Shown here: piece by piece, positions 3,392-60,545 of the stretch
How the letters are laid out: each line of letters begins with the position of its first letter
How positions within the stretch are numbered: position 1 is the stretch's first letter
Assembly (NCBI GenBank): GCA_022705745.1
Contig: JAKJDW010000004.1
Span: 3,614 to 67,613 of the forward strand
DNA length: 64,000 nt
Direction: 5' to 3'
Source: Patescibacteria group bacterium
Lineage (GTDB): Bacteria; Patescibacteriota; Gracilibacteria; Absconditabacterales; Absconditicoccaceae
The notes under the pieces: generated by a model
The model's input: the letters and a program-made list of their open reading frames with translations, nothing else
The model's database searches: none
What the model was told of the DNA's origin: nothing
Translations under genes and position numbers: made by a program

Positions 3392-3411
3392 CCACAAAGT
3401 TTTATTAAATT

Positions 3412-3500
3412 TATCCCCAGGTGGATCCCGCAATGTGCGGGACTAGCCCGAACCACCAACTTATCCCGCTGTATAGCGGGATTGCTCTATCCAATCTATC
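3412..3500 (-). pseudogene. Decayed copy of tRNA-Arg(TCT) carrying two GC-rich hairpin modules
   Basis: Aligns to the intact tRNA-Arg at 3528-3601 (shared ttatccccaggtgga...cgaaccaccaactta...ttgctctatcc). TCCCGCAATGTGCGGGA (3426-3442) sits in the T-arm, TCCCGCTGTATAGCGGGA (3464-3481) replaces the anticodon arm, and the 5' acceptor is lost. Confidence 0.6.
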
Positions 3501-3601: not shown

Positions 3602-3630
3602 TTGAGACATACCTGGTAAATAATTTAATT

Positions 3631-3705
3631 TGGACCCTATCGGAGTCGAACCGATTACCTCCTGCGTACAATCCCGCAATTCTGCGGGACTAGCCAAGTG
3701 AGAAT
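3631..3705 (-). pseudogene. Decayed copy of tRNA-Ala(TGC) with a GC-rich hairpin replacing part of the anticodon and D arms
   Basis: The first 47 nt match the intact tRNA-Ala at 3979-4053 with one mismatch (tggaccctatcggagtcgaaccgattacctcctgcgt[a/g]caa). TCCCGCAATTCTGCGGGA (3672-3689) then substitutes for aacaggcgctcta, and the 5' acceptor is degenerate. Confidence 0.6.
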
Positions 3706-3978
3706 TTAACACTTAACAAATCACTCGTAATTCATTATCCTATCAATGTGTCACGATTTTTTCAAATTAGACTCAATTTTCAAAGCTATTTTTTTATTTT
3801 CACATTCCAAATATCAAACCAGCTTTAAATCATTTCACATTCTTTTTGTAGAATAAACTTTTCAGTCCAAATGTTGTTGGTATCTTATTTTTACATTCCC
3901 CGTAATTCATAAATAGAATCTCGTTCCCTTTAATAAATACACATAGAACATAAAATAAAGATTGTTTTGATTTAAATT

Positions 3979-4053: not shown

Positions 4054-4097
4054 ATATAAGTTTGGACACAACTTCTACAACAATTTGTTTTACTATT

Positions 4098-4190
4098 AAC
4101 CGACTACCTCCTGCGTGCAATCCCGCAATTCTGCGGGACTAGCCAGGTGTGACTTTAGGAATCCCGATCTATCGGGAAGCTAAAGGGCCC
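4098..4190 (-). pseudogene. 5'-part copy of tRNA-Ala(TGC) interrupted by two hairpin modules
   Basis: aaccgactacctcctgcgtgcaa + TCCCGCAATTCTGCGGGA (4121-4138) + ctagccaggtg + tgactttaggaa + TCCCGATCTATCGGGA (4162-4177) + agctaaagggccc. The downstream flank catataagttt is also duplicated from the intact gene. The T-arm and 3' acceptor are missing. Confidence 0.55.
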
Positions 4191-4199
4191 ATATAAGTT

Positions 4200-4282
4200 T
4201 GGGGAGAGTGTGATTTGAACACACGTAGCCGTGAGGCGTCAGATTTACAGTCTGATGCAATTGACCGCTCTGCCATCTCCCC
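4200..4282 (-). tRNA. tRNA-Tyr (anticodon GTA), long variable arm
   Basis: RC GGGGAGATGGCAGAGCGGTCAATTGCATCAGACTGTAAATCTGACGCCTCACGGCTACGTGTGTTCAAATCACACTCTCCCCA. Anticodon stem TCAGA/TCTGA, loop CTGTAAA. Confidence 0.9.
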
Positions 4283-4497
4283 TTTTTATACTTTATATAG
4301 TGAATACATTCTACCATTTCCCCCCAATAATATTAGCCGTGAGGCGCCCCGATACATCGGGGTGCAATTGACCGCTCTGCCATCTCCCCTTTTTATACTT
4401 TATATAGTGAATACATTCTACCATTTCCCCCAATAATATTAGCCGTGAAACGCCCTGATACATCGGGGTGCAATTGACAGCTCTGCCAATAAATAAT
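4283..4497 (-). repeat. Two tandem ~107-bp units, each a 52-bp upstream spacer plus a tRNA-Tyr 5' half whose anticodon stem-loop is replaced by a CCCCGATACATCGGGG hairpin
   Basis: Unit 1 is 4283-4389 and unit 2 is 4390-4497 (more decayed). agccgtgaggcg[CCCCGATACATCGGGG]tgcaattgaccgctctgccatctcccc compares with the real gene agccgtgaggcg[TCAGATTTACAGTCTGA]tgcaattgacc.... A third, weaker copy lies near 4527-4575. Confidence 0.7.
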
Positions 4498-8548: not shown

Positions 8549-9160
8549 ATGACTTGAGAAGAAATTACAACAAATGTGGTAGAAGCGTGAGAAGTTGTTC
8601 GCGCTGGAATGAGTGTTAGCACAATGGTACTTATTTTAGCTGGATTTTTGATTTTGTATTTTATTTTAAGGTATAATTCGTTGATAAGGCTTAGAAACAA
8701 CATCAAAAATTCTCTAGCTGATATTGATGTACAAATGAAAATGAGATTTGATTTGGTTGATAATCTTGTAAATACTGTAAAAGGTTATGCTGGACATGAA
8801 AAAGAAACTCTTGAAAATCTAACAAAGGCTAGAACAAATTTCTTGAATGCTAGTTCTATGAGTCAAAAACTTTCTGCTGATCAAGCGTTAAGTGGAGCTT
8901 TGAAAAGTTTGTTTGCTGTATCAGAAAATTATCCAGACCTAAAAGCTAATCAGAACTTTTTGCAATTACAATCAGAACTATCAGATATAGAAAACAAAAT
9001 CGCCGCAAGTAGAAGATTCTTCAATTCTACTGTAAATGAATACAATTCATCTATAGAAACTTTCCCTACAAACATTGTTGCTAAATTGTTTGGGTTTAGG
9101 CGTGAAGAGTTTTTCGCTACAGCAGAAGTAGAAAAAGCAGTTCCAAAAGTTCAGTTCTAA
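8549..9160 (+). CDS. lemA: LemA family protein (alternative start 8609)
   Basis: ...MVLILAGFLILYFILRYNSLIRLRNNIKNSLADIDVQMKMRFDLVDNLVNTVKGYAGHEKETLENLTKARTN...YPDLKANQNFLQLQSELSDIENKIAASRRFFNSTVNEYNSSIETFPTNIVAKLFGF is the LemA signature. Confidence 0.85.
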
Positions 9161-9164
9161 GTGA

Positions 9165-9535
9165 GTAGAAAGTTACGGCAAGTTTGTAAAGTTACAAATT
9201 ATTAATCTTTATAAACTTTACGACAAAAAAGTTCTTCCCTTGCGAAGCGAAGCGGAGTCCCGATGTATCGGGAGAGGGAAGTTGCTCTATCGTAGTTGGG
9301 GGTTGTTGGGGTAAAACCCCCACCTACCCGCCCGTAGCCCCGCAATACTGCGGGGCGGGGCGGGGGAGAACAACCTCCCCAAGGGGAGGAATTTTATCTC
9401 CAAACTTTACTAATCTGTTTGTCCACAGAATTGCAGGACTATACAATATTAGAATTTTTTTCTTTCCTACCACTCGCTCCGTAGGACTACGGGACGGGTG
9501 GTAGGGGATGCAACTTTTAAACTTAATAAACAACT
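9165..9535. repeat. Composite cluster R1: AT-rich word repeats followed by nested GC-rich palindromic modules
   Basis: gtttgtaaagttacaa...ataaactttac, then cttcccttgcgaagcgaagcggag[TCCCGATGTATCGGGA]gagggaag, ctctatcGTAGttggggg[ttgttggg]gtaaaacccccacc, cccGTAGccccgcaatactgcggggcggggcggggg, cctccccaaggggagg, ctaccactcgctccgtaggactacgggacgggtggtag. Confidence 0.9.
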
Positions 9536-9538
9536 GGG

Positions 9539-10477
9539 ATGCCAAAATGAATTTATAGTTCTATTCATCAAAACAGATTTAGGAGTCTTTGTTTATTAAT
9601 ACTATTCCCTGTATTATTGTTTTTGATTACAAACATAATTTTGACTTTTTCATTTATGGATAGCTCTGAATGAATATATTTTCTTCAATCACGAAAAATG
9701 GCTTTGTATGAAACGAATAACATTTTCTTGTTACTATGACCAATCATAGTAATTTGGTGAGTTGTTTCTTTCTTTTTTCATAGACAAATCATATTTAAAT
9801 TTGCTTGAGCAAAACCTATCACAAGGAAAGAAAATCCAGAAATTTACAATATTGTAGAAAATTTATGTATCTCCAAATGACTAGCCACACCAAAAATATG
9901 AATAATAGAAGATGATAGTTTAAATGCTTTTGCGACTTGATGGAATGTCAAAAATTGATGGATAGTTTTTTCTAGATGAATTTTAAATAAATTAAACAAA
10001 TCTGAAATAGAAGCAGTTGCATGACATGAACTAACGCACATTTTGAACAAAGATTCTTTGATGATGATAATTATAGTTGTTTTTGTGTGAATTATTGGGA
10101 CATTGGGACAGGTTTTGATTAGATATTCTGGAAGATCTAGAAATGAAAAATGAGGAAATATACTGCCTTTGATATGATTGTGATTGTTGTTATTGTGATA
10201 TTTAATCTACCCTTTGATTAGGCTGGCACTTTCTCGTAAAAGAGAATATTTGGCTGATGCTGGTAGTGTTGAGTTAACAAAAGATAAGTATGCTATGATT
10301 AGTGCTTTACAAAAAATAAGCGAAAACCCTGTGATAGAGTCTATCCAAAAAGATACCGTAGCAGCTATGTGTATAGAAAACCCATTTTCAAAAGCAAAGT
10401 CTACTAGTTTTTTTAGCAAACTATTATCTACTCATCCTAGTATAGAAGATAGGATCAAAATGCTGAGTAGTTATTAA
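9539..10477 (+). CDS. htpX: M48-family zinc metalloprotease HtpX
   Basis: 312 aa: MPKGIYSSIHQNRFRSLCLLILFPVLLFLITNIIL...FKFAGAKPITRKENPEIYNIVENLCISKGLATPKIGIIEDDSLNAFATGWNVKNGWIVFSRGILNKLNKSEIEAVAGHELTHILNKD...YLADAGSVELT...THPSIEDRIKMLSSY. HExxH motif is HELTH. Confidence 0.85.
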
Positions 10478-10483
10478 AATAAG

Positions 10484-10835
10484 GATGAATACGAACTTCG
10501 TTCGTGATAAGATGATGAAACTTGCCCCGCTTAGCGGAGTGAATGTTAAAGTGATAAAATGATAAAGTGATAAAATGTTAAAATGATAAAATGATAAAGT
10601 GATAAAATGATAAAGTGATAAAATGTTAAAATGATAAAGTGATAAAATGTTAAAATGATAAAATGATAAAGTGATAAAATGTTAAAATGATAAAATGATA
10701 AAGTGATAAAATGTTAAAGTGATAAAACTTGCCCCGCTAAGCGGGGTGAATGTTGAAATGCTAAATGCTTGTCCCGCTTAGCGGGGTGAATGATGAGGTG
10801 ATAAATGCCTGTCAATAAGCAGGGTTCCTTGTTTT
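10484..10835. repeat. Composite cluster R2: three CTTGCCCCGCTTAGCGGGGTGAATG-type hairpins bracketing an 8-nt microsatellite
   Basis: aaacttgccccgcttagcggagtgaatg (about 10518-10545), aaacttgccccgctaagcggggtgaatg (about 10724-10751), atgcttgtcccgcttagcggggtgaatg (about 10766-10793), and gcctgtcaataagcagggt. Confidence 0.9.
10541..10728. repeat. 8-nt tandem repeat (TGATAAAA / TGATAAAG / TGTTAAAA), about 23 units
   Basis: Direct reading: gaatgttaaagtgataaaatgataaagtgataaaatgttaaaatgataaaatgataaagtg... uninterrupted for about 188 nt between two copies of the same GC hairpin. Confidence 0.95.
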
Positions 10836-14090: not shown

Positions 14091-14645
14091 ATGAAAAAAC
14101 TGGCTTTATTTGTACTCTTATACTTCTTTGTTTTTTTTGCTATCGTCTTGGCTCAAGCCCAAACAACAAAAGAGGTTCAGCTAACTGTTTTGAAATACGG
14201 CTTAGTAATTTGAACTCCTGCCAATCTAAATTTAGGAAATGTTACCGCATGATCCCAGATAGAAAAGACTTTTGATGGTCATTTTTGGGTAGAAGATTTT
14301 AGAAAATGATATGGGACTGGGTATTACACCACAATCCAATGTGATGGACTATATTGACCCGATGATTTTGTGATTACCTGAATGCTATTGAAATGAAATT
14401 TTATAGAGATTCTAGAATGAGATGAATGAGAAGAGGAGTTGATACACTCCTATTTGGATTCTTGGAAAGATATTACCCAGCCACAACTCTATTTCTACAA
14501 AAATAGCAGTACTCCACAAAGCTCTAATGGTCGGAAATATTGAAGCAAGCCATCCATCAATGTTTCCATACCAAGTGATGCGCCAGCTGGTGATTATAAA
14601 TGAAGAATCACATACACACTCTATGATATGAGTTTTGATTCCTAA
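14091..14645 (+). CDS. Small secreted surface protein (184 aa; WxL-domain-like, tentative)
   Basis: MKKLALFVLLYFFVFFAIVLAQAQTTKEVQLTVLKYGLVIGTPANLNLGNVTAGSQIEKTFDGHFWVEDFRKGYGTGYYTTIQCDGLYGPDDFVITG...IPSDAPAGDYKGRITYTLYDMSFDS. The blocks W.EDFRG..G.GYY and GDYKG.ITYTL resemble WxL proteins. Confidence 0.7.
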
Positions 14646-14661
14646 TTGACTAGACATAAAA

Positions 14662-14691
14662 AAATCCGAAAAAAATTTCGGGATTTTTTTT
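14662..14691 (+). terminator. Rho-independent terminator after gene 14091-14645
   Basis: aatccgaaa-aaaa-tttcgggatt followed by a T run (ggatttttttttat). Confidence 0.6.
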
Positions 14692-14735
14692 ATATAGCAT
14701 TTTTTGTATGCTTTAATCAAATTTTTTTATTCTAA

Positions 14736-15115
14736 GGTGCTGTTCTTGCAACCCCGCTTGTGGAAATTTTTAAGCTACAGGTAGGAGAAACAGCAAATTG
14801 TCTCCCTTTATCAAAGGGAGCTGGTCTCCCCCGCTGAATAGCGGGGGTAGAGGGATTTATATACAGCTTGTCATTTCGACTAAGTGAACGAAGTGAACAC
14901 ACGGAGACAAAGAAATCCTTCCCTCGGGGGAAGCTGTTCTAATGTAGTTGGGGGTAAAACCCCCACCTAGCTACACAAACAACCTCCCCCAAGGGAGGAA
15001 CTTTTGTCACAACAAACTGTCTCCCTTCATAGAAGGTAGCTGCTCTCCCCGCCCCGCTTAAACAGCGGGGCAGAATTGCGGGGATAGAGGGATTTAACAT
15101 CCTCCCATTTCTTGC
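14736..15115. repeat. Composite cluster R3 of GC-rich palindromic modules
   Basis: ttgtctccctttatcaaagggagctggtct, cccccgctgaatagcggggGTAGagggatttatataca, gtcatttcgactaagtgaacgaagtgaac, cttccctcgggggaagctgttctaatGTAGttgggggtaaaacccccacctagctac, cctcccccaagggagg, ctgtctcccttcatagaaggtagctgctct, ccccgcttaaacagcgggg, cagaattgcgggg. Confidence 0.95.
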
Positions 15116-15173
15116 AATATAAATAAATCTATAGACTTATAAAAAACAAAAAAATCTCCCCAAAGGAAGACTC

Positions 15174-15392
15174 TTATAGGCTATTTCGTTCATCTACTGA
15201 AATTCAGATATATTCAATTATACAATTTACAACTCATCTTGAAATATCTTTTCATCAATGATTTGGGAATGGAACTCTATATCCATCTTTCATCATAAAC
15301 ATATGTTTTCATCACACATAAGGTCATTCAAATCAAAGTTTTCTTAATTTCTTCACCAATTCTCTAGCATTAATAGGTGTAACTTTAGGCAT
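15174..15392 (-). CDS. hicA: Type II toxin HicA (mRNA interferase)
   Basis: MPKVTPINARELVKKLRKLGFEGPYVGGKHMFMMKDGYRVPFPNHGGKDISRGVVNCIIEYIGISVDERNSL matches the HicA pattern (..el.k.L...GF......GSH..f...g..v.vP.H.gkdi..G.l..il...gi). The ATG overlaps the hicB stop (TATGCCTAA). Confidence 0.85.
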
Positions 15393-15624
15393 AACCAAAC
15401 TCTTTATTCATAGTAAAATCCTTTTTTAAGTCTATTTTCCCATTTTTAATATCATCTATCATCAATGTTTCTATTAAATTGATCATATTTCATCTTGCAT
15501 CCTCAAAACTATCTCATTGAGTAAAATATCATGGTTTATTTGGGATTTTTGCAATAACCACTCAATCTTCATCTTTGTAATATACTGTTTGGTCTAATAA
15601 GGAATGAATATAATTTGTGAACAT
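15385..15624 (-). CDS. hicB: Type II antitoxin HicB (UPF0150-like)
   Basis: MFTNYIHSLLDQTVYYKDEDGVVIAKIPNKPGYFTQGDSFEDARGNMINLIETLMIDDIKNGKIDLKKDFTMNKEFGYA. HicB-like block y.a.iP..pG..tQGdt.eEA..n. It lies directly upstream of and overlaps hicA. Confidence 0.8.
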
Positions 15625-15721
15625 TTTCCCATTAGTTACTGGATAAAACTAATCCAATTATAAACATAAAAGCTATTTTTTCAAGCTGAAAATAAATCTT
15701 TGAATCAATGAACAAATTTCA

Positions 15722-16345
15722 GTTGTATTTGTCATTTCGACTAAGTGAACGAAGTGAACGCACGGAGACAAAGAAATCCTTCCCTCGGGGGAAGTTGCTC
15801 TAGTGTAGTTGGGGGTAAAACCCCCACCTAGCTACGCAAACAACCTCCCCCAAGGGAGGAACTTTTGTCACAACAAACTGTCTCCCTTCATAGAAGGTAG
15901 CTGCTCTCCCCCGCTGAATAGCGGGGGTAGAGGGATTTATATACAACTGTCATTTCGACTAAGTGAACGCACAGAGAAATCTCTTTACAAAAAATGTCTC
16001 CCTTTATCAAAGGGAGTTGTTCTAATGCTGCGCCCCGCAGAATTGCGGGGGTAGAGGGATTTATATACAACTGTCATTTCGACTAAGTGAACGAAGTGAA
16101 CGCACGGAGAAATCTCTTTACAAAAAATGTCTCCCTTTATCAAAGGGAGTTGTTCTAATGTAGAGGGATTTATATACAGCTTGTCATTTCGACTAAGTGA
16201 ACGCACGGAAAAATCCACTTTTAACAAACTGTCTCCCTTTCGCGAAACAAAGTGGAGTCCTCTCCCGATATATCGGGATCTCACTTTGTTCGAGATCTAT
16301 CGGGACAAAGGGAGGTGACAATTTTCCCCCACCCTTTTTCCTTTT
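15722..16345. repeat. Composite cluster R4 of GC-rich palindromic modules, including about 125-bp tandem units and a three-level nested hairpin
   Basis: Starts with a 181-bp copy of the R3 segment (15731-15912). Then come repeated units GTAGagggatttatatacaactgtcatttcgactaagtgaacg(aagtgaacg)cacggagaaatctctttacaaaaaatgtctccctttatcaaagggagttgttctaatg. The nested element is at 16229-16316. Confidence 0.95.
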
Positions 16346-16403
16346 CCCACATACCACCAAAATAATACTTTTCAACAGATGGCAGAAAGATCTCCATTTT
16401 TAT

Positions 16404-16431
16404 TTGCAATTTAATTTTTTTTAGTTATAAT
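16404..16431 (+). promoter_or_regulatory. Promoter TTGCAA-16-TATAAT of candidate sRNA copy A
   Basis: TTGCAA at 16404-16409 and TATAAT at 16426-16431, inside a 42-nt block (atctccatttttatttgcaatttaattttttttagttataat) identical to 17103-17143. Confidence 0.55.
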
Positions 16432-16437
16432 CATCTC

Positions 16438-16497
16438 TGTATCAATATAGAGAAGGGATCCGAAAAGTGTTAGTGCTTTAGGTACCTTCTTTTTTTT
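16438..16497 (+). ncRNA. Candidate about 60-nt small RNA (copy A), convergent with the 3' end of NYN gene A
   Basis: Long stem-loop gagaagggatccgaaaag-TGTTAGTG-ctttaggtaccttct followed by T8. The loop and inner stem are conserved with copy B, while the outer stem differs but stays complementary. Confidence 0.45.
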
Positions 16498-16508
16498 GTT
16501 CAGAAATT

Positions 16509-18204: not shown

Positions 18205-18332
18205 CCACATCCACACCATCTACACCATCTGTGCTCATCTGTGTCATCTGTGCTCATCTGTGTCATCTGTGGTCATCTGTGGTCATCTGTGGTCATCTGT
18301 GGTCATCTGTGGTCATCTGTGGTTATCTGTGG
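18205..18332. repeat. 9-10-nt tandem repeat (CATCTGTGGT and variants), about 12 units
   Basis: ccatctacaccatctgtgctcatctgtgtcatctgtgctcatctgtgtcatctgtggtcatctgtggtcatctgtggtcatctgtggtcatctgtggttatctgtggttatctgg. Confidence 0.95.
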
Positions 18333-18336
18333 TTAT

Positions 18337-18402
18337 CTGGTGGTTTAAAAAAAAACCCCTCTCCTGCTCCCAATCCCGCGAGAACGGGAAAGAGAAAGGA
18401 AA
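18337..18402 (-). terminator. Terminator of the S-layer-like gene, built from a GC hairpin with a nested TCCCGCGAGAACGGGA module
   Basis: Minus strand reads aaaaaaCCCCTttcctttctctt[tcccgttctcgcggga]ttgggagcaggagAGGGGttttttttt. It lies about 60 nt downstream of the stop at 18461. Confidence 0.6.
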
Positions 18403-18460
18403 GGGGTTTTTTGTGAGTTTTTTAGACTACGAGTGATAGTCTAATATTTTTCAACATTGA

Positions 18461-21319
18461 TTATTGTGCAGCTACATTATACTTTTCTGTAAACAGATCT
18501 TTTCATGTTTCGTTATAATCAAGAGACGCAATTTGTGCCTGAAGTATTTCAGGTTCAATACTTGCACCGTCTATAAGAATATAATTAATCAACTCATCAT
18601 TGTTAAATATTGTTCCAGTATCAGTAAGAGCAGTAATCCGCTTTCAGAAGTTAGGATTTCCAAGGTTACATTTAAGTTGATTAACATCATCTGTAAGACA
18701 AACTTCTCCATCAAAATCAGAATCCTTAGTAAGTGATCTTACTCTGAATTCAAGATCTTTTACATCAATATTAACATCATCATCTACATTCTTGATAACC
18801 ACCTTAAACATATTATAAGCATGTTTGGTGAGAGTAATATCAGGTCTAGTTGCTCTAAATGTATATGGATTTGTTGAAAGTTTTTGAGGCGCATCATTAG
18901 TAAGTTCCACTACAGAAGAAGTAGCCCTTACAGAACCAGTTGTAATATTGAAGAGAACGCCACTACCATGATAATCTTTGATAGTTCCTAAACTAGCCAT
19001 AAGTTTAAAGTTTACGGTTTTATTTTTAGGAATCTCGACACTCATATTTCTTACTTCAAAAATATCTTCATCATCATTAAATGTAATATTGGCATTTACT
19101 TCAGTTGCAGTATCTGAATCAATTTTAAACAAGGTCAGATTTCCATCAAATAATGTTTCAAAATCTGTAGCAGATAGTGAACCTTGATTCTCAAGATCAA
19201 AATCTTTAAGAACAGCAGTGTCGTTGTTTGCTTTTATAGAGAATCTACCTACTTCTTGTTCCTTATTAGCAAATAATGATTCTGTAGCAGGTCAAGCAAT
19301 AGTTGCTTTGTTAAGTTTTATATCACCAGCTTTTATACTAACAGCATCACCTTTTCTTGCAGGTACAGCGTAGGTAATGGTATGATCATCCATATTTTCT
19401 ACAGTAACAAGTTCTACTTCAAATTGAACAGTTGCACCTGTTAATGGAGCAGGCACTCTGGTATTAATTATAATTTCTATTTTAGCAGTAGTACCAGCAT
19501 CAATACCAACTTCCATATCTGTAGCAGAGATTGCGAAAGGAGCTTTTATATCAGCATCTGCAATTTCAAACTCTTCTCCATTGATTTTAAATACAGCAGA
19601 TCCATTAGAATATAACTCACCAAAGGCACCAACTGTGTTTAAAGTAGGAGTAATTGTAACTGCTTGAACTGTAAGGTCAGTAGCTGTTTTAAGTTCTCCA
19701 GCAAATAGTTTTACTTGAGAAGTACCAGGAAGTACATTCTTTTCAATAGCTAATTTTTTGAAGCTAATATCAGATCCGTGTACTTTAATTTCCGCGAGAC
19801 CACCTGCAGTAGCGTTCATTCCAAAACCTGAATTACCTTCAAGAACATCTACATTGTCATAATCAAAATCAATATCAACAATTTCTTTAGAGTAAACAAC
19901 ATCAGCTTTGATTTCTACTATCACTTTTTCATCTTTAGCTTTAGCTGTATTAAGTCCTGATACGATAACTTTATCTTTACTAAGACTTACACCACCTACA
20001 ACAGCACCATCTATATATGCTTCAGCATTTGCAAAAATATCATATAGATTTTCAGCAGGATCTGTATCAGCCTCTAAAGAGAATCCTCTAAGAGTTCAAG
20101 CATGATCAAATATTATTTCAACTTTAGCAAGAATCTTATTTTCTCCAGCTTTAGCTGTAGAGTCTCCCTGTTTAACATTGAATGTAACATTCTTAGTCTG
20201 CGCAGAAGTTGTCTTTACAGTACCTAGAGTAAGAGGAGTACCACTTGCTGTTCCATTCGCAACATTTACAGCAGTTACTTTAAAGTTATGAGTAGAGTTT
20301 ACTGCATTAGCATGTTCATCCATAGACATCATTACATCAAACTCCATAGAAGAACCAGCTTTAAGGTCAAGAGCAGGAGAGAACTTAACTATTACTTTGT
20401 TTGTACTAGAAGATACAGGCTTAGCAGTAGTTTTTATGTTTCCTCCTTGAACATAAACTTGAGGTCTATTGTCTGGATCATTCATGTCAGCAAGACCATC
20501 TCTAGAAATCTCTAAAGAAGACACTCTAGCTCCATTTTCACCAGCTGTTAATTTAATTCTTCCAATATTTACATTTACAGCATTCATAGGAACATCTTGT
20601 TGAGCTGGAACGCTTACTTTGGATATAGTTACATATCCAGGAAGAACTTCTGTTGCTTCATCGCTACAAGCAGCTATACAAGCTTCATAGTCGTCAGCTA
20701 AAATACAAGTCAATAATTCTTCAGCTGAACATCCAACAGCTGGAGCATAATTGTCATCAGCTCTCATCATCATAAGCATTACATAACCTCTCACTTCTTT
20801 CATGTTAGGATTATCAATCATGTTCATAATCCCTTCATCTTTCAAAGCTTGAAGGTGCTTTTTGTAATATGGGTCTCCACCATTATTTTCATCTCCCCAT
20901 AATGCTCTAGATAAAACTGTTCCAAATTCAGCTCTAGTTACTATACCATTTGGATTGAATTTTGTAATTCCAACCCCCATAAGACCTAGTTGACAAGCTT
21001 TTGTCACACCATTGTCGTATGCAGTATCTAGTGCTACAGATACATCTGGGAATTTACATTCCTTAGTTGTATCAAGTTCTTGTAGACCTAAGTCAAGAAC
21101 ATAGTTGGCTACCATTTTAGCCATTGCAACTCTTGTCAAATTACCATACATGTCAGCATCATCTATGCTAGCCATTGTAGTAATTCATTTGTTTTTTGCG
21201 TACCCGTATGCTTCTGTTAGCTCATCACTGTATGAAGCAGCATTAGCATAGGTAGGCATCATTGTTGCTAACAAAGCGAAAATCGCTGAGTAAGCAAAAA
21301 GTTTTTTAAATGTTTTCAT
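18461..21319 (-). CDS. S-layer-like surface protein (952 aa): signal peptide, SLH-like repeats, then repeated Ig-like beta domains
   Basis: MKTFKKLFAYSAIFALLATMMPTYANAASYSDELTEAYGYAKNKGITT...CKFPDVSVALDTAYDNGVTKACQLGLMGVGITKFNPNGIVTRAEFGTVLSRALWG. The SLH-like blocks are F.DV and F.P.G.VTRAEF. A long Thr/Val/Asn-rich region follows. Four standard-code ORF pieces are joined by TGA, and the length is a multiple of 3. Confidence 0.85.
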
Positions 21320-21394: not shown

Positions 21395-21885
21395 AAACAT
21401 CATCTCAAACTCACCAAACCTAGCCCCCCTTAGCAAGGGGGGTAGGGGGGATCCGTCCACAACCAACTGTCTCCCTTTTTCAAAGGGAGCTGCTCTATTG
21501 TAGTAGTGGGATTTCTCCCCGCATAGCCCCCTTCGAACGAAGTGAAGCCCCGATTTATCGGGGAGCAAGGGGGGTAGGGGGGATCCGTCCACAACCAACT
21601 GTCTCCCTTTTTCAAAGGGAGCTGCTCTATTGTAGTGGGATTTCTCCCCACCTAGCCCCCTTCGAACGAAGTGAAGCCCCGATTTATCGGGGAGCAAGGG
21701 GGGAAGGGGGGATCCGTCCACAACCAACTGTCTCCCTTTTTCAAAGGGAGCTGCTCTATTGTAGTGGGATTTCTCCCCTTTTTCAAATTAACCATCTCCC
21801 TCATTAAATGAGAACTAGCTAAAGAAATCCTTCCCTTGGGGGAAGTTGTTCTATCGTAGTTGGGGGTAAGTATCCCCGGTTTCAA
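21395..21885. repeat. Composite cluster R6: about three tandem copies of a ~130-bp unit of GC-rich modules plus extra modules, just upstream of the S-layer-like gene
   Basis: Unit starts at 21433, 21565 and 21694 (periods 132 and 129 nt): gcaaggggggtaggggggatccgtccacaaccaactgtctccctttttcaaagggagctgctctattGTAGtgggatttctcccc.cctagcccccttcgaacgaagtgaagccccgatttatcgggga. Ends with cttcccttgggggaagttgttctatcGTAGttgggggtaag. Confidence 0.95.
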
Positions 21886-22681: not shown

Positions 22682-24541
22682 CTATCTCCTCATCCTTACT
22701 AATACTAACCAAACAATAAACAATCCTAACAAAACATACTTAATCCAACTTCCTTCTGCATGCAAATAAACCCCAAATTTCTGTGCTAATTCGGACATGA
22801 AATAGATGTAATTCAACAACAACTTTTCTGGCCAAAGTCGAATTCCCCATGGAAGTGCTTGGAACAAAACCGTACTAATAAACCCATAAATCATCACTAC
22901 CGCAACAATCGGAACTACAAGAAAGTTCGCAATAATTCATGTCAAATTTGTCGTTCCCATAAAAAACAACATCACAGGCAAAACTCCAATCGTAGCTCCA
23001 ACCGTAGGAGTAACAAACTCTTTGAGAAATTTCTGAAATCATGTTTTGAATAAATTTTTTTTCTTTTTGGAAGTAATGGTGGTTTGTTTTTCGTTATTAG
23101 CTCACGGTTTATTGAAATAACTTACACAATTTTCTATCAATTTTCAAAAATAAATTATTCCTATAATAGCTGAAAAACTAAGCAAAAACCCGACATCATA
23201 AGCCAAAAAATACGGATTTATGATCAACATGACAATGAATGCAATAGACATCGCCCTCCAAATATTGATCTCTTTTCACCAAAAAAGTGCCAACATTCCT
23301 AGTCATCACATCACTGTTGCTCTAAAAACCGAGCTGTCTAGTCAACAAATCATGGAATACAAAATAATTGTCAGCAAAATTACCGCATTTCTCACATAAA
23401 AAGGCAGAAAAAATAAAATCGCTCACAAAAAAACTACTATCATAATAATATTTCATCAGCTAACCGCGATAATGTGGACAAGTCACGATTTCACGAATCA
23501 TTGATAATCGTCTGGCGGAATCTGCGATCTATCTCAAACCAACATTCACAAAACCAATCCAGCTTGTTTATTTTCTCCGTAGGCAGATACTACCATCTTT
23601 TGCAAGCCCTTCCTAATTTTCTGAATAAAAGAAATCTTGCTTTTGCAATTCTGCTCTGAAAGAGAATGTAAGTTCTCATCATTACCTTTTCCAGAAAAAT
23701 TGTCTCCCTTTATCAAAGGGAGCTGCTCTCCCCGCACCGCCCCGCAGTATTGCGGGGCTACAGGAGGGTAGAGAGATTTTTTTAATCCTTTAGTCCCCGA
23801 AAGACTGTGGAGCGGAGCTAAAAAAGGAGGATAAATTTGAGCCACAAGCGAGACATTCTTCCCTTGGGGGAAGTTGTGTGCGAAGCTAGATGGGGGTAAG
23901 AAATCTTCTGTTTCAAAAACATCATCAGCAAAATTATGATATTCACATTCATCCTTGAAAACTAAATAACTTTGCCCATATATCGTACCATAAAACCCTT
24001 TCATCATCAGCCATTTGGAGTAATTGAACTCATAATCAAATAGTCATGACAAGCTCGGTTTGCTGACAAAATCATTCCATTGCTTTTGAAAATCAAAAAT
24101 ATTTCCCGCTCCCGTATAAGCTAGATCCACCCTTCAATTTAGCCACAAAATATCTCAAATTTCAAATTTTCTTGAAGAAATTAAAAAATATTCGCGCCCA
24201 GCATTGTCTTGGAAAATGTATTTTTGATAAGAATAAATATCGGAAACAATACCCGTTCCTACAAAATATTTTCAAACAGGTCAGTCCATATCACGCGAAA
24301 TTCTTCATTCTAAATTGGGCAAAGATTTGATATCCTGATCGTACTTATAATTTTTGACAAAAATAGACAGAATAGAAATTAGAAATGCTAATGTAATTAA
24401 CAAGGATGTACGAGCAGTATTTTTGAATTTTTTAACAATAGAATGTCAAAGTAATAATAGAATCAACAGCAACAATGCTAAAAAAACATTCTCAAAAACC
24501 GTTAAAACAAATACAAATATCGCAAATGATATTATGAACAT
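22682..24541 (-). CDS. comEC: DNA internalization competence protein ComEC/Rec2 (619 aa) with an in-frame palindromic-element insertion
   Basis: MFIISFAIFVFVLTVFEN...SKWLMMKGFYGTIYGQSYLV... [insert] ...AGLVLGMLVGDRSQIPPDDYQGFVKSGLVHIIAVSGGNIIMIVVFLGAI...AYDVGFLLSFSAIIGIIYF...GATIGVLPVMLFFMGTTNLTGIIANFLVVPIV. ComEC blocks LG.r..i.....F..sG..Hi.AvSG. The 1860-nt frame is continuous. Confidence 0.85.
23699..23905. repeat. Cluster R8: GC-rich palindromic modules inside the comEC reading frame
   Basis: attgtctccctttatcaaagggagctgctct, ccccgcaccgccccgcagtattgcggggCTACagg, agggtagagagattttttta, cttcccttgggggaag. On the coding strand these read ...FPQGKNVSLVAQIYPPFLAPLHSLSGTKGLKKSLYPPVAPQYCGAVRGEQLPLIKGDNFSG... 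with no stop. Confidence 0.9.
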
Positions 24542-25590: not shown

Positions 25591-25682
25591 ATGAATGAAT
25601 TAAGGTTAAAGATTCTAATTCCTTGATAAGGTATATAAACAATGGGGAATATGGATTTGGGCTTCAGGTGGAAGGAATAACA

Positions 25683-25822
25683 AGCTGTCTCCCTTTTGCA
25701 AAGGGGGCTGCTCTAATGTAGAGGGATTTAATATTCTCTCCACTTTTGCAGCCCCAGCCCGTAGCCCCGCAGTATTGCGGGGCGGGGCGGGGCGGGGTCA
25801 AACAGTACCCGGGTGGTAGGGC
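25683..25822. repeat. Composite cluster R10
   Basis: agctgtctcccttttgcaaagggggctgctctaatGTAGagggatttaat, cccGTAGccccgcagtattgcggggcggggcggggcgggg, gtacccgggtggtaggg. Confidence 0.9.
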
Positions 25823-25823
25823 A

Positions 25824-28800
25824 TTATAAATTAAATAAATACTCCAAATACTCTTCTTTCAACTGCTGATATTTTTGAACTATCGGTGGCGGAACAAGCT
25901 CATTAATTCTCTGATTCAAAGAACTTGAAACCGTTGATGGATACTGAGATTCATACATCGCTTTGAATTCGTTTGTACTATAAACATTACCGTCAAGCTC
26001 TATCGTAGAATCTCAATTACTTATAGCTTTTTCTATCTGATTTAACAGGTCAAAATAATTTTTTATCTCACTATTGTAATACATCACTCTCCAGTTACTC
26101 TTTAGATATTCCTCAAAAACATCAAAATACTCTTTGTAAAGTTTGTTTTGATTCAATCTCTTTGTAGACAGTTTAGAATAAGGCATGTTTTTACAATAAA
26201 ATTTCTGTCCGCCGTATGTCAAACAAACCTGATTTCAGAAATTCTGTAATTTCGCCGTTTTTAATACGCCAAAATCATCAACAATAATAGATTCCAAAAC
26301 TCAATTGGATACCAAAAACTTTTGTCATTCTGTTGGATGAGGATAACAAAATTTATCAAAAATAATATTTTTGTATCATAGTTCTATGCAGGTTGCCTTG
26401 TTTGGTAACGAAAAATTTCATGTAAGCAAAGTCTCTTGATGTGGGACCAGTATTCAAGCAAGTTTTTTCTTGGTGCTTCAGATTTTCAAGTAAAATCCAT
26501 TAGCCAAATTGATATTTTTTGAATATCATTGTGAAAGTAAAGAAGGATCTGACTCATTTTCATCGTTTGTGGACAAAGAATCTATGGATGAACGAAGTAC
26601 AGAAGGATCAATTGTGTAAAGTAATCGTACCGACTCTCAAAGCGAATCCTTCCCTTTTGGATTTGGGATTAGTCAAGTAATTTTTATGTCTACTCCTGTC
26701 AACTCATTTTCTTCTTTTTCCAAAAGTTTATCCTTCTCTGGATCATAGCTATATGTGGCAAAAATCGTATCTTCATACATCAAAGAAATCGTAGTAGCTT
26801 TAGTGTTTGGGAAGCTAAAAGTTCATCTCAAAGTTTTTGTCTCGTTTGGCGATATTCATCAATAATTTTTCAAGGATTTTTTGGTAGTATTTACCATTAA
26901 ATAAAATCATTCCGAAAACTGAATTGGGAATCATTTATGCATAGTGATTGTAATTTCCTCCTTGTCCTTATCATCTCACTCCGGATCATACAGAACATAG
27001 TCTATGGTAAACTCATAATCATCCAAAATTTTAGTTTCTTCTACAGGACACAATCTTTTTCAAAAACATGGAGAAGCCCGCAATCACAAGCTATTTTGTT
27101 GAGCATATTTTTGAGCTGATTGAAATAATGATTGATATTTATAGTTTTTTCATTTATATGAATACTCTCGTGCATATCAATTTTTAACTAATTTTTCGTT
27201 TATATTTTCTCAGTTCAAAAAAACATATCACACAAACCTATCAAAATCATCTTTTTCTGCTTGCTGAAACGAAATCGTTTTATTTGCGAGTAGGGAATTA
27301 AGATATTCTTTTGCTTCTGGCCCAAAACATTCAACTTTCCCACATCTCAAAGCAGAAGATTCTGGTGCGTCTATTCAAGCAAGTCTGATATTAAACTCCT
27401 GTTCCAGATAAGAAATTTTGATAGTATCTCCATCAATAATGGAAATAACCTTGTATTCTCCGTCTGGAATTTCTTTGATTTTGTTTGGATTGTAAATGTA
27501 TGTGTCCACTATTTGCTGGTTTGAATTGAGAATATGAACAATTACAGGATTTTTGTCTTGGGTACTATTTGGTAAGGTATAATCTCACTTGAAAGTCTGC
27601 TCAGCCCCAAAAGTTAGAATTCATTTTAGACTTTTATTTGTAGCTTTCCCCTCTTTTATATATTGCAAAGTGTATTGTGACAGATCAACCTGTGTTCCAG
27701 TAAGTAGTAATAATGTAATAGTTTCGTTATCTTTATCAGATCAAGGTGGATCATAGTCTATATGTTTTATCTTTATGTTTTTCAAAGAAGCTATATTTCA
27801 GGTGAAAAGTTCTTCTTCCAATTCTTCATCAATCTCTTCTTCATCTATATCTATCCAGAACTCTAATTGGTTTTGGATATTTTCTTCATCTGTTCCACTA
27901 GCTTTGGACATAGAGTTTCTACAGTATCTATCTATAATTTTTCAATCTTTTATCAGATTTATACAATGATCAGTTTTTGTAGGGAATCAGTACTTTCAGA
28001 CAAATGACATAGTCTCTTTGGCGAACAAAGTATTTCATTTTATTGATTTTATTTCCCCATCAAATCATTGAACCTTGTAATCTCTAAGATTAATATCGGA
28101 ATTAGTTTTATTTTTTAATTTCAAAATCTGATAGTTTCAATAATATTTCAAGCTAGATATTTGTATATCTCAGTTGATGGAATCGTTGGTGTTGAATTGG
28201 AATCATTCAGCTTGCGGACAGAATCATCATCAGTTATTTACTTTAATATATTGAACAACTGGCTCCGGAGAAATCTGAATAAATTGGCTTTGTCATATTG
28301 TCATTCATGGCGAAAACTTGTCTACATAATCAAAAACTCCTGCACACTGAATGAGATCAGTTCACATATACAAAGATATTCATTGGGTTCATCAATTTAG
28401 ATAAACTATATCCAACACTTCCAAATCAGCCCCATCTTTTCAATAAACAATGAGCCATCCAGAACTATTTAAAGAAAAATTTGAATCATATAAGGAATCT
28501 CGTCATTCATTATATCGGACATCGGAATCTGTGATGAGAAACCTCTTTCCTAGTTGTAATTCAGTAGAACTGAGTACGATTTCCTGATCCAAAGCAGATC
28601 CTCAAAGTTTTATTTGAGGGTAATCATCCCCTACATCATCCGTAATATTCAGCTCCACATAAGAAGGATAAATTCAGCTTCAATAGTAAACTTCAGAAAT
28701 ATCCAAAATCCAATCCGCATAAAAATCATCGCAATCTATCGGTATATTTAGATCGTTTCCTGTGTTCCCGGGGTCTGGATTGTAAGGATTTTTGTTTAAT

Positions 28801-34469: not shown

Positions 34470-34715
34470 GAAAAAGTATTAAGTGGGAAGTCCATCAAGT
34501 AACAAGTTTATAAAGTTACAAGTCGATGACTATTCCTCTTAAAAAAGAGGGCTAAAACTTTATTAAAAAAATTCTTCCCTTGGGGGAAGCTGTTCTGATG
34601 TAGTTGGGGGTATTACCCCCACCTAGTCCCTCATAAATTCGGGACGCCACAACCTCCCCAAGGGGAGGGATTTTATCTTAAGTCTTATGCACTTTGAACT
34701 TTTAACTTTAAGAAC
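34470..34715. repeat. Composite cluster R12 (AT word repeats flanking GC modules)
   Basis: caagtaacaagtttataaagttacaag, cctcttaaaaaagagg, cttcccttgggggaagctgttctgatGTAGttgggggtattacccccacctag, tccctcataaattcggga, cctccccaaggggagg, gcactttgaacttttaactttaagaactt. Confidence 0.9.
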
Positions 34716-38215: not shown

Positions 38216-38665
38216 TTGCCTCCCTTCAAAGAAGGGAGCTGCTCTAATGCTATGCACCGCTTGCCCCGCTTAAACAGCGGGGCAGAATTGCGGGGCTACA
38301 ATTTATGGGGATTTAGGCCACAAATAGAAAAAACAAAAAATTGTCTCCCTTTTGCGAAACGAAGTGGAGTCCTCTCCCGACACATCGGGATCTCACTTTG
38401 TTCGAGATCTATCGGGACAAAGGGAGCTGTTCTTCCGCATCTCTTGCAGCCCCGCAGAATTGCGGGGCTACAATTTGTTGGAATTTAAGCCATAAGTAGG
38501 AGAAACAGCAAACTGTCTCCCTTTCGCAAAGGGAGCTGTTCTTTTAGAGGGATTTAGTGTATTCCACCACACAGAATTGCTTGACTCAAGAAAGAGAATT
38601 ATCCCTGTTTCTACTAGTCATGTCCTTCGCCCTCCCGTAGTACTACGGGAGGGCTCGAGGACGAC
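38216..38665. repeat. Composite cluster R13, including a second copy of the three-level nested hairpin (38341-38427)
   Basis: ttgcctcccttcaaagaagggagctgctctaatg, ccccgcttaaacagcgggg, cagaattgcggggCTAC, ttgtctcccttttgcgaaacgaagtggagtcctc[tcccgacacatcggga]tctcactttgttcgagatctatcgggacaaagggagctgttct, ccccgcagaattgcggggCTAC, GTAGgagaaacagcaaactgtctccctttcgcaaagggagctgttct, cctcccGTAGtactacgggagg. Confidence 0.95.
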
Positions 38666-39533: not shown

Positions 39534-39722
39534 GCAAAGTTTGTAAAGTTGAAAGTTTATAAAGTTGCAAGTTAAAAGTTTGTAAAGTTAAAAGTTGAAA
39601 GTTTATCAAGCTGCAAGTTATAAGTTTGTAAAGTTAAAAGTTGAAAGTTTATCAAGCTGCAAGTTATAAGGCGCTTATGAACTTTACAAACTTTATGAAC
39701 TTTACAAACTTAAACGACTATT
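39534..39722. repeat. AT-rich word-repeat cluster with a 58-bp direct duplication and inverted GTTTGTAAAGTT / AACTTTACAAAC arms
   Basis: gcaaagtttgtaaagttgaaagtttataaagttgcaagttaaa[agtttgtaaagttaaaagttgaaagtttatcaagctgcaagttata]x2 aggcgcttatgaactttacaaactttatgaactttacaaactt. Confidence 0.9.
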
Positions 39723-60075: not shown

Positions 60076-60165
60076 TTTTTATTGTATTTAAATAAAACAG
60101 TTATTTTTTTAGTTAAAAATCTAAAGTTTTCAAGGATATTTTTCATTAGTTTATCAATTTTTTGA

Positions 60166-60545
60166 ATCCCCTTTTTAAGGGGTTACTCTATCGTAGTTGG
60201 GGGTTGTAGTTGGGGATTGTCAGGAATTACTGGGAAGAAAAACCCCCACCTACCCCGCAGTATTGCGGGGGAGAACAACCTCCCCCAAGGGAGGAACTTT
60301 TGTCACAACATTATTGCCTCCCTTTGAAAAAGGGAGTTGGTCTTCCCGATTTATCGGGATAGAGGGATTTATTTACATCCCCCTTGACTACGGAGTTCTC
60401 CGTAACGAGCAAGGGAGATGCTTATTAGCTTTTAATAAATCCCCCTTAATCCCCCTTATTAAGGGGGATGTTTGTTAGCTTTTAATAAACCCCTTAACTA
60501 CGAAATTCTTCGTAGCGAATAAGGGAGAGGTAGGAGACTTTCCTC
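60166..60545. repeat. Composite cluster R15
   Basis: tccccttttTaaggggttactctatcGTAGttggggg[ttgtagttggggattgtcaggaattactgggaagaaaa]acccccacctac, cccgcagtattgcggg, cctcccccaagggagg, ttgcctccctttgaaaaagggagttggtct, tcccgatttatcgggaTAGagggattta, tcccccttattaaggggga, ctacggagttctccgtaac, ctacgaaattcttcgtag. Confidence 0.95.

Follow-up and report, generated by a model that had tools for sequence, protein, structure and literature searches.

Stepwise growth of a nested palindromic repeat in an Absconditabacteria genome, probably by gain at hairpin tips and inverted self-duplication

Several families of short palindromic repeats are known from AT-rich genomes. The mobile GC clusters of yeast mitochondrial DNA, the palindromic elements of Rickettsia and the small dispersed repeats of cyanobacteria are GC-rich hairpins that form subfamilies, are reported to nest in one another, insert in frame into protein genes or into structural-RNA genes, and differ in presence between close relatives; for all of these families, defined termini or target motifs have been reported. 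The cyanobacterial repeats are those of Elhai and colleagues (2008), as cited in PMC3733652 and PMC3116915. Template-switch (quasi-palindrome) mutagenesis and fold-back inverted duplication are known from E. coli and yeast, the classic events being single mutations at one locus. The subject here is a hairpin nested at three levels (positions 16229-16316) in a 64,000-nucleotide stretch of DNA from a Patescibacteria group bacterium (GenBank assembly GCA_022705745.1, contig JAKJDW010000004.1, positions 3,614 to 67,613 of the forward strand), hereafter the window, together with the mosaic family of GC-rich hairpin modules to which it belongs. The explanation favored, with a probability of roughly 0.6, is that this family resembles the repetitive extragenic palindromic (REP) sequences and bacterial interspersed mosaic elements (BIME), that its hairpin tips gain sequence which is partly templated from adjacent sequence, and that finished composites spread and recombine as units.

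The REP sequences and BIMEs of Enterobacteria and Pseudomonas (PMC3733652, PMC3116915) share with the window modules the character of short GC-rich imperfect palindromes (by a 20-40 bp criterion) that are highly over-represented and mostly extragenic, an arrangement in ordered mosaics with other short motifs, subfamilies distinguished by stem and loop, occasional intragenic copies and a content that varies between strains; inverted doublets (REPIN) fold into larger hairpins, and both are natural targets of IS110-family insertion sequences (IS). In addition, REP loops may hold inner self-complementary regions, up to 27 bp in Bradyrhizobium, and REP superfamilies have stems bordered on one side by an unpaired tag, GTAG or CGTC (PMC3733652). 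In the window, GTAG immediately precedes the TTGGGGG module (7 copies) at the 5' end, as well as the GCCCCGCA modules at 9333 and 25758, and CTAC lies 3' at 23739 and 38448, whereas the module that hosts the nested hairpin has TGT...YTG flanks and neither tag. Since the host module lacks the tag and no REP-associated tyrosine transposase (RAYT) was seen in the sequence searched, membership of the REP superfamilies is not established. Other differences are the single orientation over 51 kb, as opposed to the head-to-head dimers of REP sequences, the nesting by inverted self-duplication, the replacement of arms in tRNA paralogs, and the setting, a genome with 30% GC that uses genetic code 25 and belongs to the candidate phyla radiation (CPR).

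Regarding the enzymes that target such hairpins, IS621 is a bridge-RNA recombinase with a CT core and natural REP-element targets (PMC11208160), ISPpu10 needs a stem-loop in the target DNA (bioRxiv 10.64898/2026.03.19.712850), and IS110-family insertion into REP hairpins was described by Tobes and Pareja in 2006, as cited in PMC3116915. The genomes of CPR bacteria, SR1 and Gracilibacteria included, are tiny; by one survey, inverted repeats are nevertheless most abundant in two phyla, of which Gracilibacteria is one (bioRxiv 10.1101/2024.09.29.615628); in the literature on Gracilibacteria or SR1, as far as it is searchable, no description of the present repeats was found.

The three-level hairpin has the sequence previously described for it, and its near-identical copy is present at 38341-38427, the second copy starting at 38345 (offset 22112) with 93% identity over 95 nt. 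The parts of the structure are as follows:

16233-16240, plus strand: left arm of the host hairpin, CTCCCTTT
16241-16243, plus strand: residual host loop CGC, identical to the loop of an empty copy (38525-38527)
16244-16257, plus strand: 'a', a purine-rich 14-mer, GAAACAAAGTGGAG, which is the 5' part of an insert termed X (see below) and the left arm of the second stem
16263-16278, plus strand: central palindrome TCCCGATATATCGGGA, a copy of the small hairpin of X
16279-16291, plus strand: 'd', TCTCACTTTGTTC, an inverted copy of 'a', forming the right arm of the second stem within a 33-nt invariant block
16294-16306, plus strand: orphan half-copy GATCTATCGGGAC, the displaced loop and right arm of the original small hairpin of the 34-nt-loop form (see below)
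16307-16314, plus strand: right arm of the host hairpin, AAAGGGAG
38345-38426, plus strand: second copy of the composite, in the form with a 66-nt loop, 93% identical and also present at the orthologous site of a sister strain (L165)
38517-38535, plus strand: host hairpin in its empty form, CTCCCTTT-CGC-AAAGGGAG, at a distance of 172 nt downstream from the filled copy; L165 lacks the unit between the two

Folding as single-stranded DNA yields three nested stems in both copies (z = -4.8 and -3.7), with none of 200 shuffles equally stable, and host arms separated by loops of 9-69 nt occur twice in the window, against 0.00 expected. The empty host, CTCCCTTT-NNN-AAAGGGAG, is present in 13 window copies if close variants are included, all of which have an 8-bp stem and a 3-nt loop, not the loop of 4-6 nt that the original prediction had ascribed to this common module. 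The differences between the two filled copies had likewise been placed mostly in loops; they are not concentrated there, 2 of approximately 7 being found in the innermost loop.

Metagenome contigs of the Joint Genome Institute (JGI) were scanned for host arms with expanded loops, and the 35 loci obtained include low-GC ones that belong to this family; related metagenome loci are designated by L-numbers (e.g. L137). Four of them (L128/L152, L137, L139, L150) carry an intermediate form with a 34-nt loop, CTCCCTTT CGC GAAACGAAGTGGAG TCCCGATCTATCGGGA C AAAGGGAG, which consists of the host hairpin and the 31-nt insert X, itself made up of the purine-rich 14-mer and a TCCCGAT-NN-ATCGGGA hairpin. The 66-nt-loop form is found at five loci or more (both window sites, L129/L159, L157 and L126), with a version in another host stem (host 3) at L139:7145. 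The two forms occupy the same site in L137 (34-form) and L159 (66-form), which are orthologous, with flanks 88% and 99.5% identical, and which differ by a single clean 32-nt indel. Within the small hairpin, the indel follows TCC of the left arm, so that it lies in a stem and not in a loop, where the addition of the second level had been thought to occur. These 32 extra nucleotides match the reverse complement of the loop content of the 34-form at 28 of 29 aligned bases, with an alignment score of 45 (null 12.8 +/- 2.9, maximum 31); alignment in direct orientation scores 24 and covers only the 16-nt palindrome.

Because the added 32 nt are the reverse complement of X, the second palindrome is not a separate module. 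Its right arm is an inverted copy of the pre-existing purine-rich 14-mer, probably generated by templated inverted duplication, the central palindrome is a copy of the small hairpin, and the half-copy is the displaced right arm of the original one. The notion of an independent second module is also contradicted by the distribution of CACTTTGTTCGAG, which occurs only inside X-bearing hairpins (7 distinct copies), and by the presence of its left arm without the right arm in all 34-forms.

Comparison of six 66-form copies indicates how the composite reached its present sites. All 8 variable sites lie in columns 12-42, and the 33 columns 43-75, which comprise the right arm of the central hairpin, the inverted arm, the dinucleotide GA and the orphan half-copy, are invariant. 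The inverted arm reads CTTTGT in all six copies and faces ACGAAG in five of the six (a G.T pair); the added block was therefore not re-templated at each locus and has a single origin, in disagreement with the idea of two independent nesting events in the window. Both copies in the window, and those at three or more additional loci, are thus copies of one finished composite. In addition, variants of the left part (loop TGC, GTGAAG, GACATATC) are common to 66-forms and 34-forms, and hybrids that join the left arm of host 1 to the right arm of host 3 are found at L126 and L139:7145; these features point to exchange between units through recombination or gene conversion. An examination of the six copies for covariation in the nested fold revealed only one-sided changes and no two-sided ones, the copies being too similar. 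The invariant 33-mer had 0 matches in a scan of viral contigs, and a scan of genome contigs for AAANTGTCTCCCTTT, a pattern too short to be specific, gave at least 120 matches, those listed all being chance matches from unrelated taxa.

The nested hairpin is a composite form of the most common module in an extensive family, whose modules have colonized the AT-rich spacers of the genome. GC-rich perfect hairpins number 47 in the window, as compared to 1.4 +/- 1.1 in block-wise dinucleotide shuffles (an approximately 30-fold excess), and they form nine clusters, all located in spacers except one that lies in frame in comEC. The order of modules is kept across the nine clusters: a pyrimidine-rich hairpin, YTGYTCT, a GGGGG- or CCCCGC-type hairpin, TAGAGGGATTTA, and then GTCATTTCGAC / GTCATTTCGACTAAGTGAACG and further modules. 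Asymmetric motifs are all on the plus strand of the window (15/0, 14/0, 8/0 and 5/0; 9 clusters, 9200-60400), whatever the orientation of neighboring genes, and the rule of one orientation also holds within contigs L157 (3 clusters) and L141 (2 clusters). Two of the clusters are directly relevant to the nesting:

14750-16340, all modules on the plus strand: mosaic array of hairpin modules with conserved order, containing the nested hairpin and flanking a hicAB pair
60155-60535, plus strand: mosaic cluster upstream of ppdK, holding an expanded GTTGGGGG module (60196-60250) and nested hairpins at 60380-60420 and 60488-60530

The hicA/hicB-like toxin-antitoxin pair in the first array (15174-15624, minus strand) lies between direct repeats of hairpin modules, 183 nt long and 97% identical (14868-15050 and 15729-15911), and looks like a small cassette gained or duplicated through recombination between mosaic units. 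The in-frame case involves a complete unit, the CTCCCTTT hairpin and the GCCCCGCA hairpin (23686-23770), within a ComEC-like open reading frame (ORF) at 22682-24541 on the minus strand; the insertion lies upstream of the Pfam Competence domain (aa 333-617), is translated as ...YPPVAPQYCGAVRGEQLPLIKGDNF... and is reminiscent of the in-frame palindromic elements of Rickettsia. The yeast, Rickettsia and cyanobacterial repeats differ from the present ones in that they have other hosts and no sequence relationship to them, and defined termini or target motifs were not found for the window modules. GC-rich repeats also create stop-free stretches that are annotated as genes in public collections (15985-16284, minus strand; 38216-38488, plus strand; 25615-25824, minus strand), one such spurious product, the 78-aa 'protein' P0001, being present on 7 contigs and serving as a handle for repeat copies. 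In practical terms, broken assemblies and spurious ORFs in CPR metagenome bins are the consequence.

The repeats turn over between strains, as seen directly at several sites. In a strain approximately 99% identical elsewhere (L132), the spacer at 14827 holds other modules and one extra unit, while L165 has no unit at 38430-38535 and carries another one upstream. Relatives with PpdK identities of 96% and 91% lack the ppdK cluster described above, and one of them has a different nested palindrome at that position; the spacer that precedes the patatin gene is devoid of modules in a metagenome-assembled genome (MAG) of 84-88% identity. Density varies as well, with 0.4-1.7 GC-rich hairpins per 10 kb at the loci of relatives, 47 in the 64 kb of the window and approximately 9 per 10 kb in L128 and L137.

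These observations can be arranged in a three-step scheme. In the first step, the host CTCCCTTT-NNN-AAAGGGAG would gain the 31-nt X at the 3' edge of its loop, giving the 34-nt-loop form. In the second, a fold-back or strand-switch error of replication, centered on the small hairpin, would copy X in inverted orientation into X, giving the 66-nt-loop form with its long second stem, central palindrome and orphan half-copy. In the third, the composite would be moved to other loci as one unit, through exchange between dispersed units (recombination or gene conversion) and through whole units being gained or lost. The second step resembles template-switch mutagenesis in that the added segment is the reverse complement of adjacent sequence, is centered on an existing hairpin and converts an imperfect palindrome into a longer one; it differs in that the product is a dispersed repeat subfamily, and in the presence of a few untemplated junction bases. 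As to the source of X, its 14-mer resembles GAACGAAGTGAACG, approximately 55 nt upstream in the same unit, and its hairpin resembles the 'position-2' hairpin just downstream, likenesses that faintly suggest local templating. A function specific to the nested copy is improbable; collectively, the hairpins may serve as terminator-like elements working in both directions, or as REP-like ones. If the scheme holds, the natural series from empty to 34-nt to 66-nt loop would offer a tractable case for the birth and diversification of palindromic repeats that grow by hairpin-centered self-copying.

Loops also act as sites of gain in other host hairpins. X-like inserts, composed of CGAA.CGAAG.G.AG and a YCCCGAT hairpin, are found in the loops of three host stems, each of which is also found empty; in addition to the host described above, these are:

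9238-9286, plus strand: X-like insert GCGAAGCGAAGCGGAG + TCCCGATGTATCGGGA in CTTCCCT/AGGGAAG, with empty copies at 14917 and 15778 (loop TCGG)
21526-21578, plus strand: X-like insert CGAACGAAGTGAAG + CCCCGATTTATCGGGG in the third host, CCCCCTT/AAGGGGGG, repeated at 21655-21707 and empty at 21424-21442

The stem of this third host, CCCCCCTT/AAGGGGGG, is thus filled at 21526 and 21655 and empty at 21424. Different hairpins occupy further hosts: the hairpin enclosed by CCTACCAC/GTGGTAGG is TCCGTAG at 9466 and GACCCCGGGA in L162, and CCCCTT/AAGGGAG encloses TACGGAG-type hairpins at 60380 and 60488. The proposal that modules insert into each other's loops therefore stands in part: empty and filled hosts exist, and in several host types additional sequence sits in the loop or adjoins it, while the second level of the nest is self-derived and located in a stem.

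A second type of module, GTTGGGGG...CCCCCACC, had been cited as a further example of nesting. Its intact copies were recovered at 14947 and 15808, and the copy at 9295 is indeed altered, the alteration being a 9-nt tandem duplication of the left arm that recurs at L128 and L137 as a subfamily and does not represent an insertion. The copy at 60196-60250, held to contain a 38-nt insertion, has a 35-nt extra segment, the first 13 nt of which are a tandem duplication of GTAGTTGGGG.TT and the remaining 22 nt of which are unique in the data. Judged by sequence, both variants are local tandem duplications and not insertions of foreign modules.

That hairpin loops serve as an integration site is shown directly by an IS110-family element. 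The target is an empty variant of the host:

38220-38238, plus strand: CTCCCTTC-AAA-GAAGGGAG; in L165, the loop of its ortholog contains a 1302-bp IS110-family element that divides the hairpin

The flanks of this L165 site are 98-99.7% identical to the window, and the element (L165 2215-3516), which encodes a DEDD_Tnp_IS110 + Transposase_20 protein and is absent from the window, interrupts the hairpin exactly at the loop, with the junction CTCCCTTCAA-AG-(IS)-AG-AAGGGAG (ortholog of window 38231). At two more loci (L162 1-605, L150 6818-6909) the same element ends against ...AG-AGGGG right arms; all three sites lie at the loop/right-arm edge of Y-rich/R-rich hairpins, and the dinucleotide AG that flanks both sides corresponds to CT when the element is read in its own direction. 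The recombinase gene is preceded by a 234-nt non-coding region that includes CCCTTCT and CTTCCCTTT, candidate target guides of a putative bridge RNA; an Rfam search of the non-coding part of the element gave no model match. The sister-strain element is thus similar to IS621 and ISPpu10 in its protein domains, its hairpin sites, the CT dinucleotide and the upstream non-coding region, and the comparison with them is limited by its position outside the window, by a bridge RNA that is a prediction and by the absence of sequence common to it and the nested modules. In particular, the ends of the element have no similarity to X or other small modules: its insertions identify loops as targets, and the nest itself is not explained by it. 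The repeats may accordingly be regarded as landing pads, natural hairpin targets for a compact RNA-guided (bridge-RNA type) recombinase of the IS110 family.

Hairpin modules are also found in duplicated tRNA genes. Near tRNA genes lie partial paralogs in which an arm has been swapped for, or interrupted by, a GC-rich module:

window 3405-3500, 3630-3700, 4095-4205, 4318-4382 and 4424-4488: tRNA paralog copies
L141 209-275: tRNA paralog copy in a distant relative

The tRNA-Tyr copies have CCCCGATACATCGGGG in place of the anticodon arm TCAGATTTACAGTCTGA, the tRNA-Arg copy has TCCCGCTGTATAGCGGGA in place of its anticodon arm and TCCCGCAATGTGCGGGACTAG inserted in the T-loop, the tRNA-Ala copies contain TCCCGCAATTCTGCGGGA and TCCCGATCTATCGGGA, and the tRNA-Leu copy of L141 carries CCCCGGTAATTACCGGGG in the T-loop. 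These paralogs could be decayed pseudogenes colonized by modules or something functional. An 8-11-nt motif of the mosaic units, YTGCTCTATC, equals the D-arm of the neighboring tRNA-Arg gene, from which one might speculate that the units are tRNA-derived; a tRNA covariance model did not detect the mosaic units, and the relative orientation of tRNA genes and modules varies across loci. In the same region, a small ORF of the GIY-YIG nuclease family (3706-3951, minus strand; Pfam E = 1.4e-6) has tRNA-Ala on one side and an incomplete copy of the 3' half of that gene on the other.

Several of these facts weigh against the scheme of templated growth and dispersal by recombination. X-like inserts in three host types, together with different inner hairpins elsewhere, could reflect real insertion activity rather than replication errors and recombination. 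The uniform orientation of modules is not obviously predicted by random recombination and is expected of strand-specific mobility on single-stranded DNA (ssDNA). The transposase search covered only approximately 170 kb of this lineage. The junctions of the inverted segment are unclean, the left one having TCCTC and the right one GA as additional bases, and a simple one-step switch therefore does not reproduce the sequence exactly.

Active, structure-targeted transposition, as put forward in the original prediction, would have a dedicated enzyme place small hairpins into single-stranded loops, with one insertion per level of nesting; the enzyme might be an HUH transposase of the RAYT/IS200 type, with ssDNA as its substrate, or else a recombinase of the IS110 type working in trans. 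Such a process would readily account for the extra material that five or more host types carry in the loop or alongside it, for the position of X within 0-3 nt of the IS110 integration point, for tRNA paralogs with hairpins in the T-loop or replacing the anticodon arm in both the window and a distant relative, for the uniform strand, for GTAG beside the stem in some modules, as in RAYT-mobilized REPs (PMC3733652), and for the presence or absence of clusters between relatives. It is at odds with a second level that derives from the nest's own sequence and is placed in a stem rather than a loop, with copies that are not independent events, and with IS110 ends unlike X or other modules. Furthermore, no target-site duplications were seen at the boundaries of X or of clusters, nor conserved termini of modules; the lack of such duplications and of similarity to the IS110 ends also separates the family from miniature inverted-repeat transposable elements (MITE), which have IS-matching terminal inverted repeats and a target-site duplication. 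Comparison by tblastn of IS200 TnpA and E. coli RAYT (approximate query sequences) with 168 kb of the window and related loci returned nothing below E = 0.03, hence no RAYT/IS200 match, and a Pfam scan of ten window proteins found no Y1 transposase. The IS110-family insertion in a hairpin loop and the absence of clusters in relatives lend some support to the claim of active insertion, for which neither a small-module transposase nor a target-site duplication was found; as an explanation of the nest, transposition of this kind is rather unlikely.

A broader version of the same idea, for which the odds appear lower still, holds that Absconditabacteria carry a dedicated system that inserts or swaps GC-rich hairpin modules of 16-35 nt at the tips of DNA stem-loops. 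It would target the loops of other modules, duplicated tRNA genes at their T-loops and anticodon arms and, now and then, the reading frames of proteins, as the invaded tRNA paralogs and comEC would then illustrate. If such a system acted on one DNA strand, the uniform orientation would be accounted for, and the nest would be a record of successive structure-guided events, for which the enzyme might be an IS110-type recombinase, RNA-guided and working in trans, or one that acts on ssDNA and has so far escaped recognition.

Another reading, which is distinctly improbable, sees in the nest a tolerated or selected expansion segment of a functional structured RNA or transcription signal, such as a bidirectional intrinsic terminator, an mRNA stabilizer or an unknown small RNA. 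In its favor, terminator-like sites number 18 in 14600-16500 against 1.6 expected, a T-run follows the host hairpin on the minus strand and the CCTCCCC hairpin on the plus strand, and several clusters lie downstream of minus-strand genes. The two-sided change between the stems CTCCCTTT/AAAGGGAG and CTCCCTTC/GAAGGGAG and the mostly G.T-compatible one-sided changes of the nest would also be in keeping with a selected fold, the symmetry of a palindrome being something that can be maintained at the DNA level as well. These points are countered by the orientation of the sites, which is independent of neighboring genes, by the location of two clusters between divergent gene starts and of one in frame inside comEC, by the dispensability of clusters in close relatives, and by the lack of two-sided covariation in the six nested copies. 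At gathering score, Rfam 15 identified tRNAs only, and at E <= 10 it gave no credible match in 14650-16450.

The original prediction had itself named a refuting alternative, a single long ancestral palindrome (the 66-form) deleted down to the 34-form and to empty hairpins, and this is very improbable: palindromes are deletion-prone and the orthologous 34/66 pair by itself gives no direction, but the half-copy GATCTATCGGGAC, partnerless in the 66-form, is the right arm of a perfect hairpin in the 34-form, the displaced arm of a pre-existing hairpin, which deletion would have to recreate exactly and by accident while leaving the orphan half-copy unexplained, a 34-like architecture is present in three host types and in the distant relative L131, which lacks the inverted arm, and the 3-nt loops of the empty hairpins are of many different kinds.

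With respect to the source organism, the window has a GC content of 30% and encodes bacterial ribosomal-protein, secF, dnaJ, comEC and ppdK genes. A tRNA with anticodon UCA is encoded, many window genes contain in-frame TGA codons, which are plausible as glycine (e.g. DnaJ HPDKAGGNKEKF), and PpdK is 91% identical to that of a Candidatus Absconditabacterales MAG and 83% to that of candidate division SR1 RAAC1_SR1_1. Because of these three features, the host is assigned, on gene content, to the code-25 CPR bacteria of the SR1/Absconditabacteria group, which would read UGA as a sense codon. A mitochondrial origin, at first suggested by the low GC content, the UCA tRNA and the GC clusters, was rejected in view of the bacterial genes named above and of the match of PpdK to SR1. 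The organism is also contained in wastewater and digester metagenomes; two wastewater contigs are identical to the window over 9100-9632, hence no polymorphism is available there.

A replication origin near 38 kb, where the window has its cumulative GC-skew minimum, was considered as a reference for module orientation; skew here tracks gene orientation, and nothing was inferred on the orientation of modules relative to replication. A 23-nt AAAGTT-rich tandem unit (39537-39682 and 34488-34523) adjoins this minimum, and related AAGTT-rich stretches flank several hairpin clusters. Other tandem repeats include approximately 30 copies of an 8-nt unit (AATGATAA/AGTGATAA) at 10510-10765, with CCCCGCT hairpins on both sides, and a 10-nt unit, GTCATCTGTG, repeated 7-8 times at 18252-18349. 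In the gene for a 952-aa secreted protein (18461-21319, minus strand), approximately 2.2 kb (window 18442-20628 vs L132 5272-7445) gave no alignment between strains that are otherwise 99% identical, and may represent a hypervariable segment of a surface protein.

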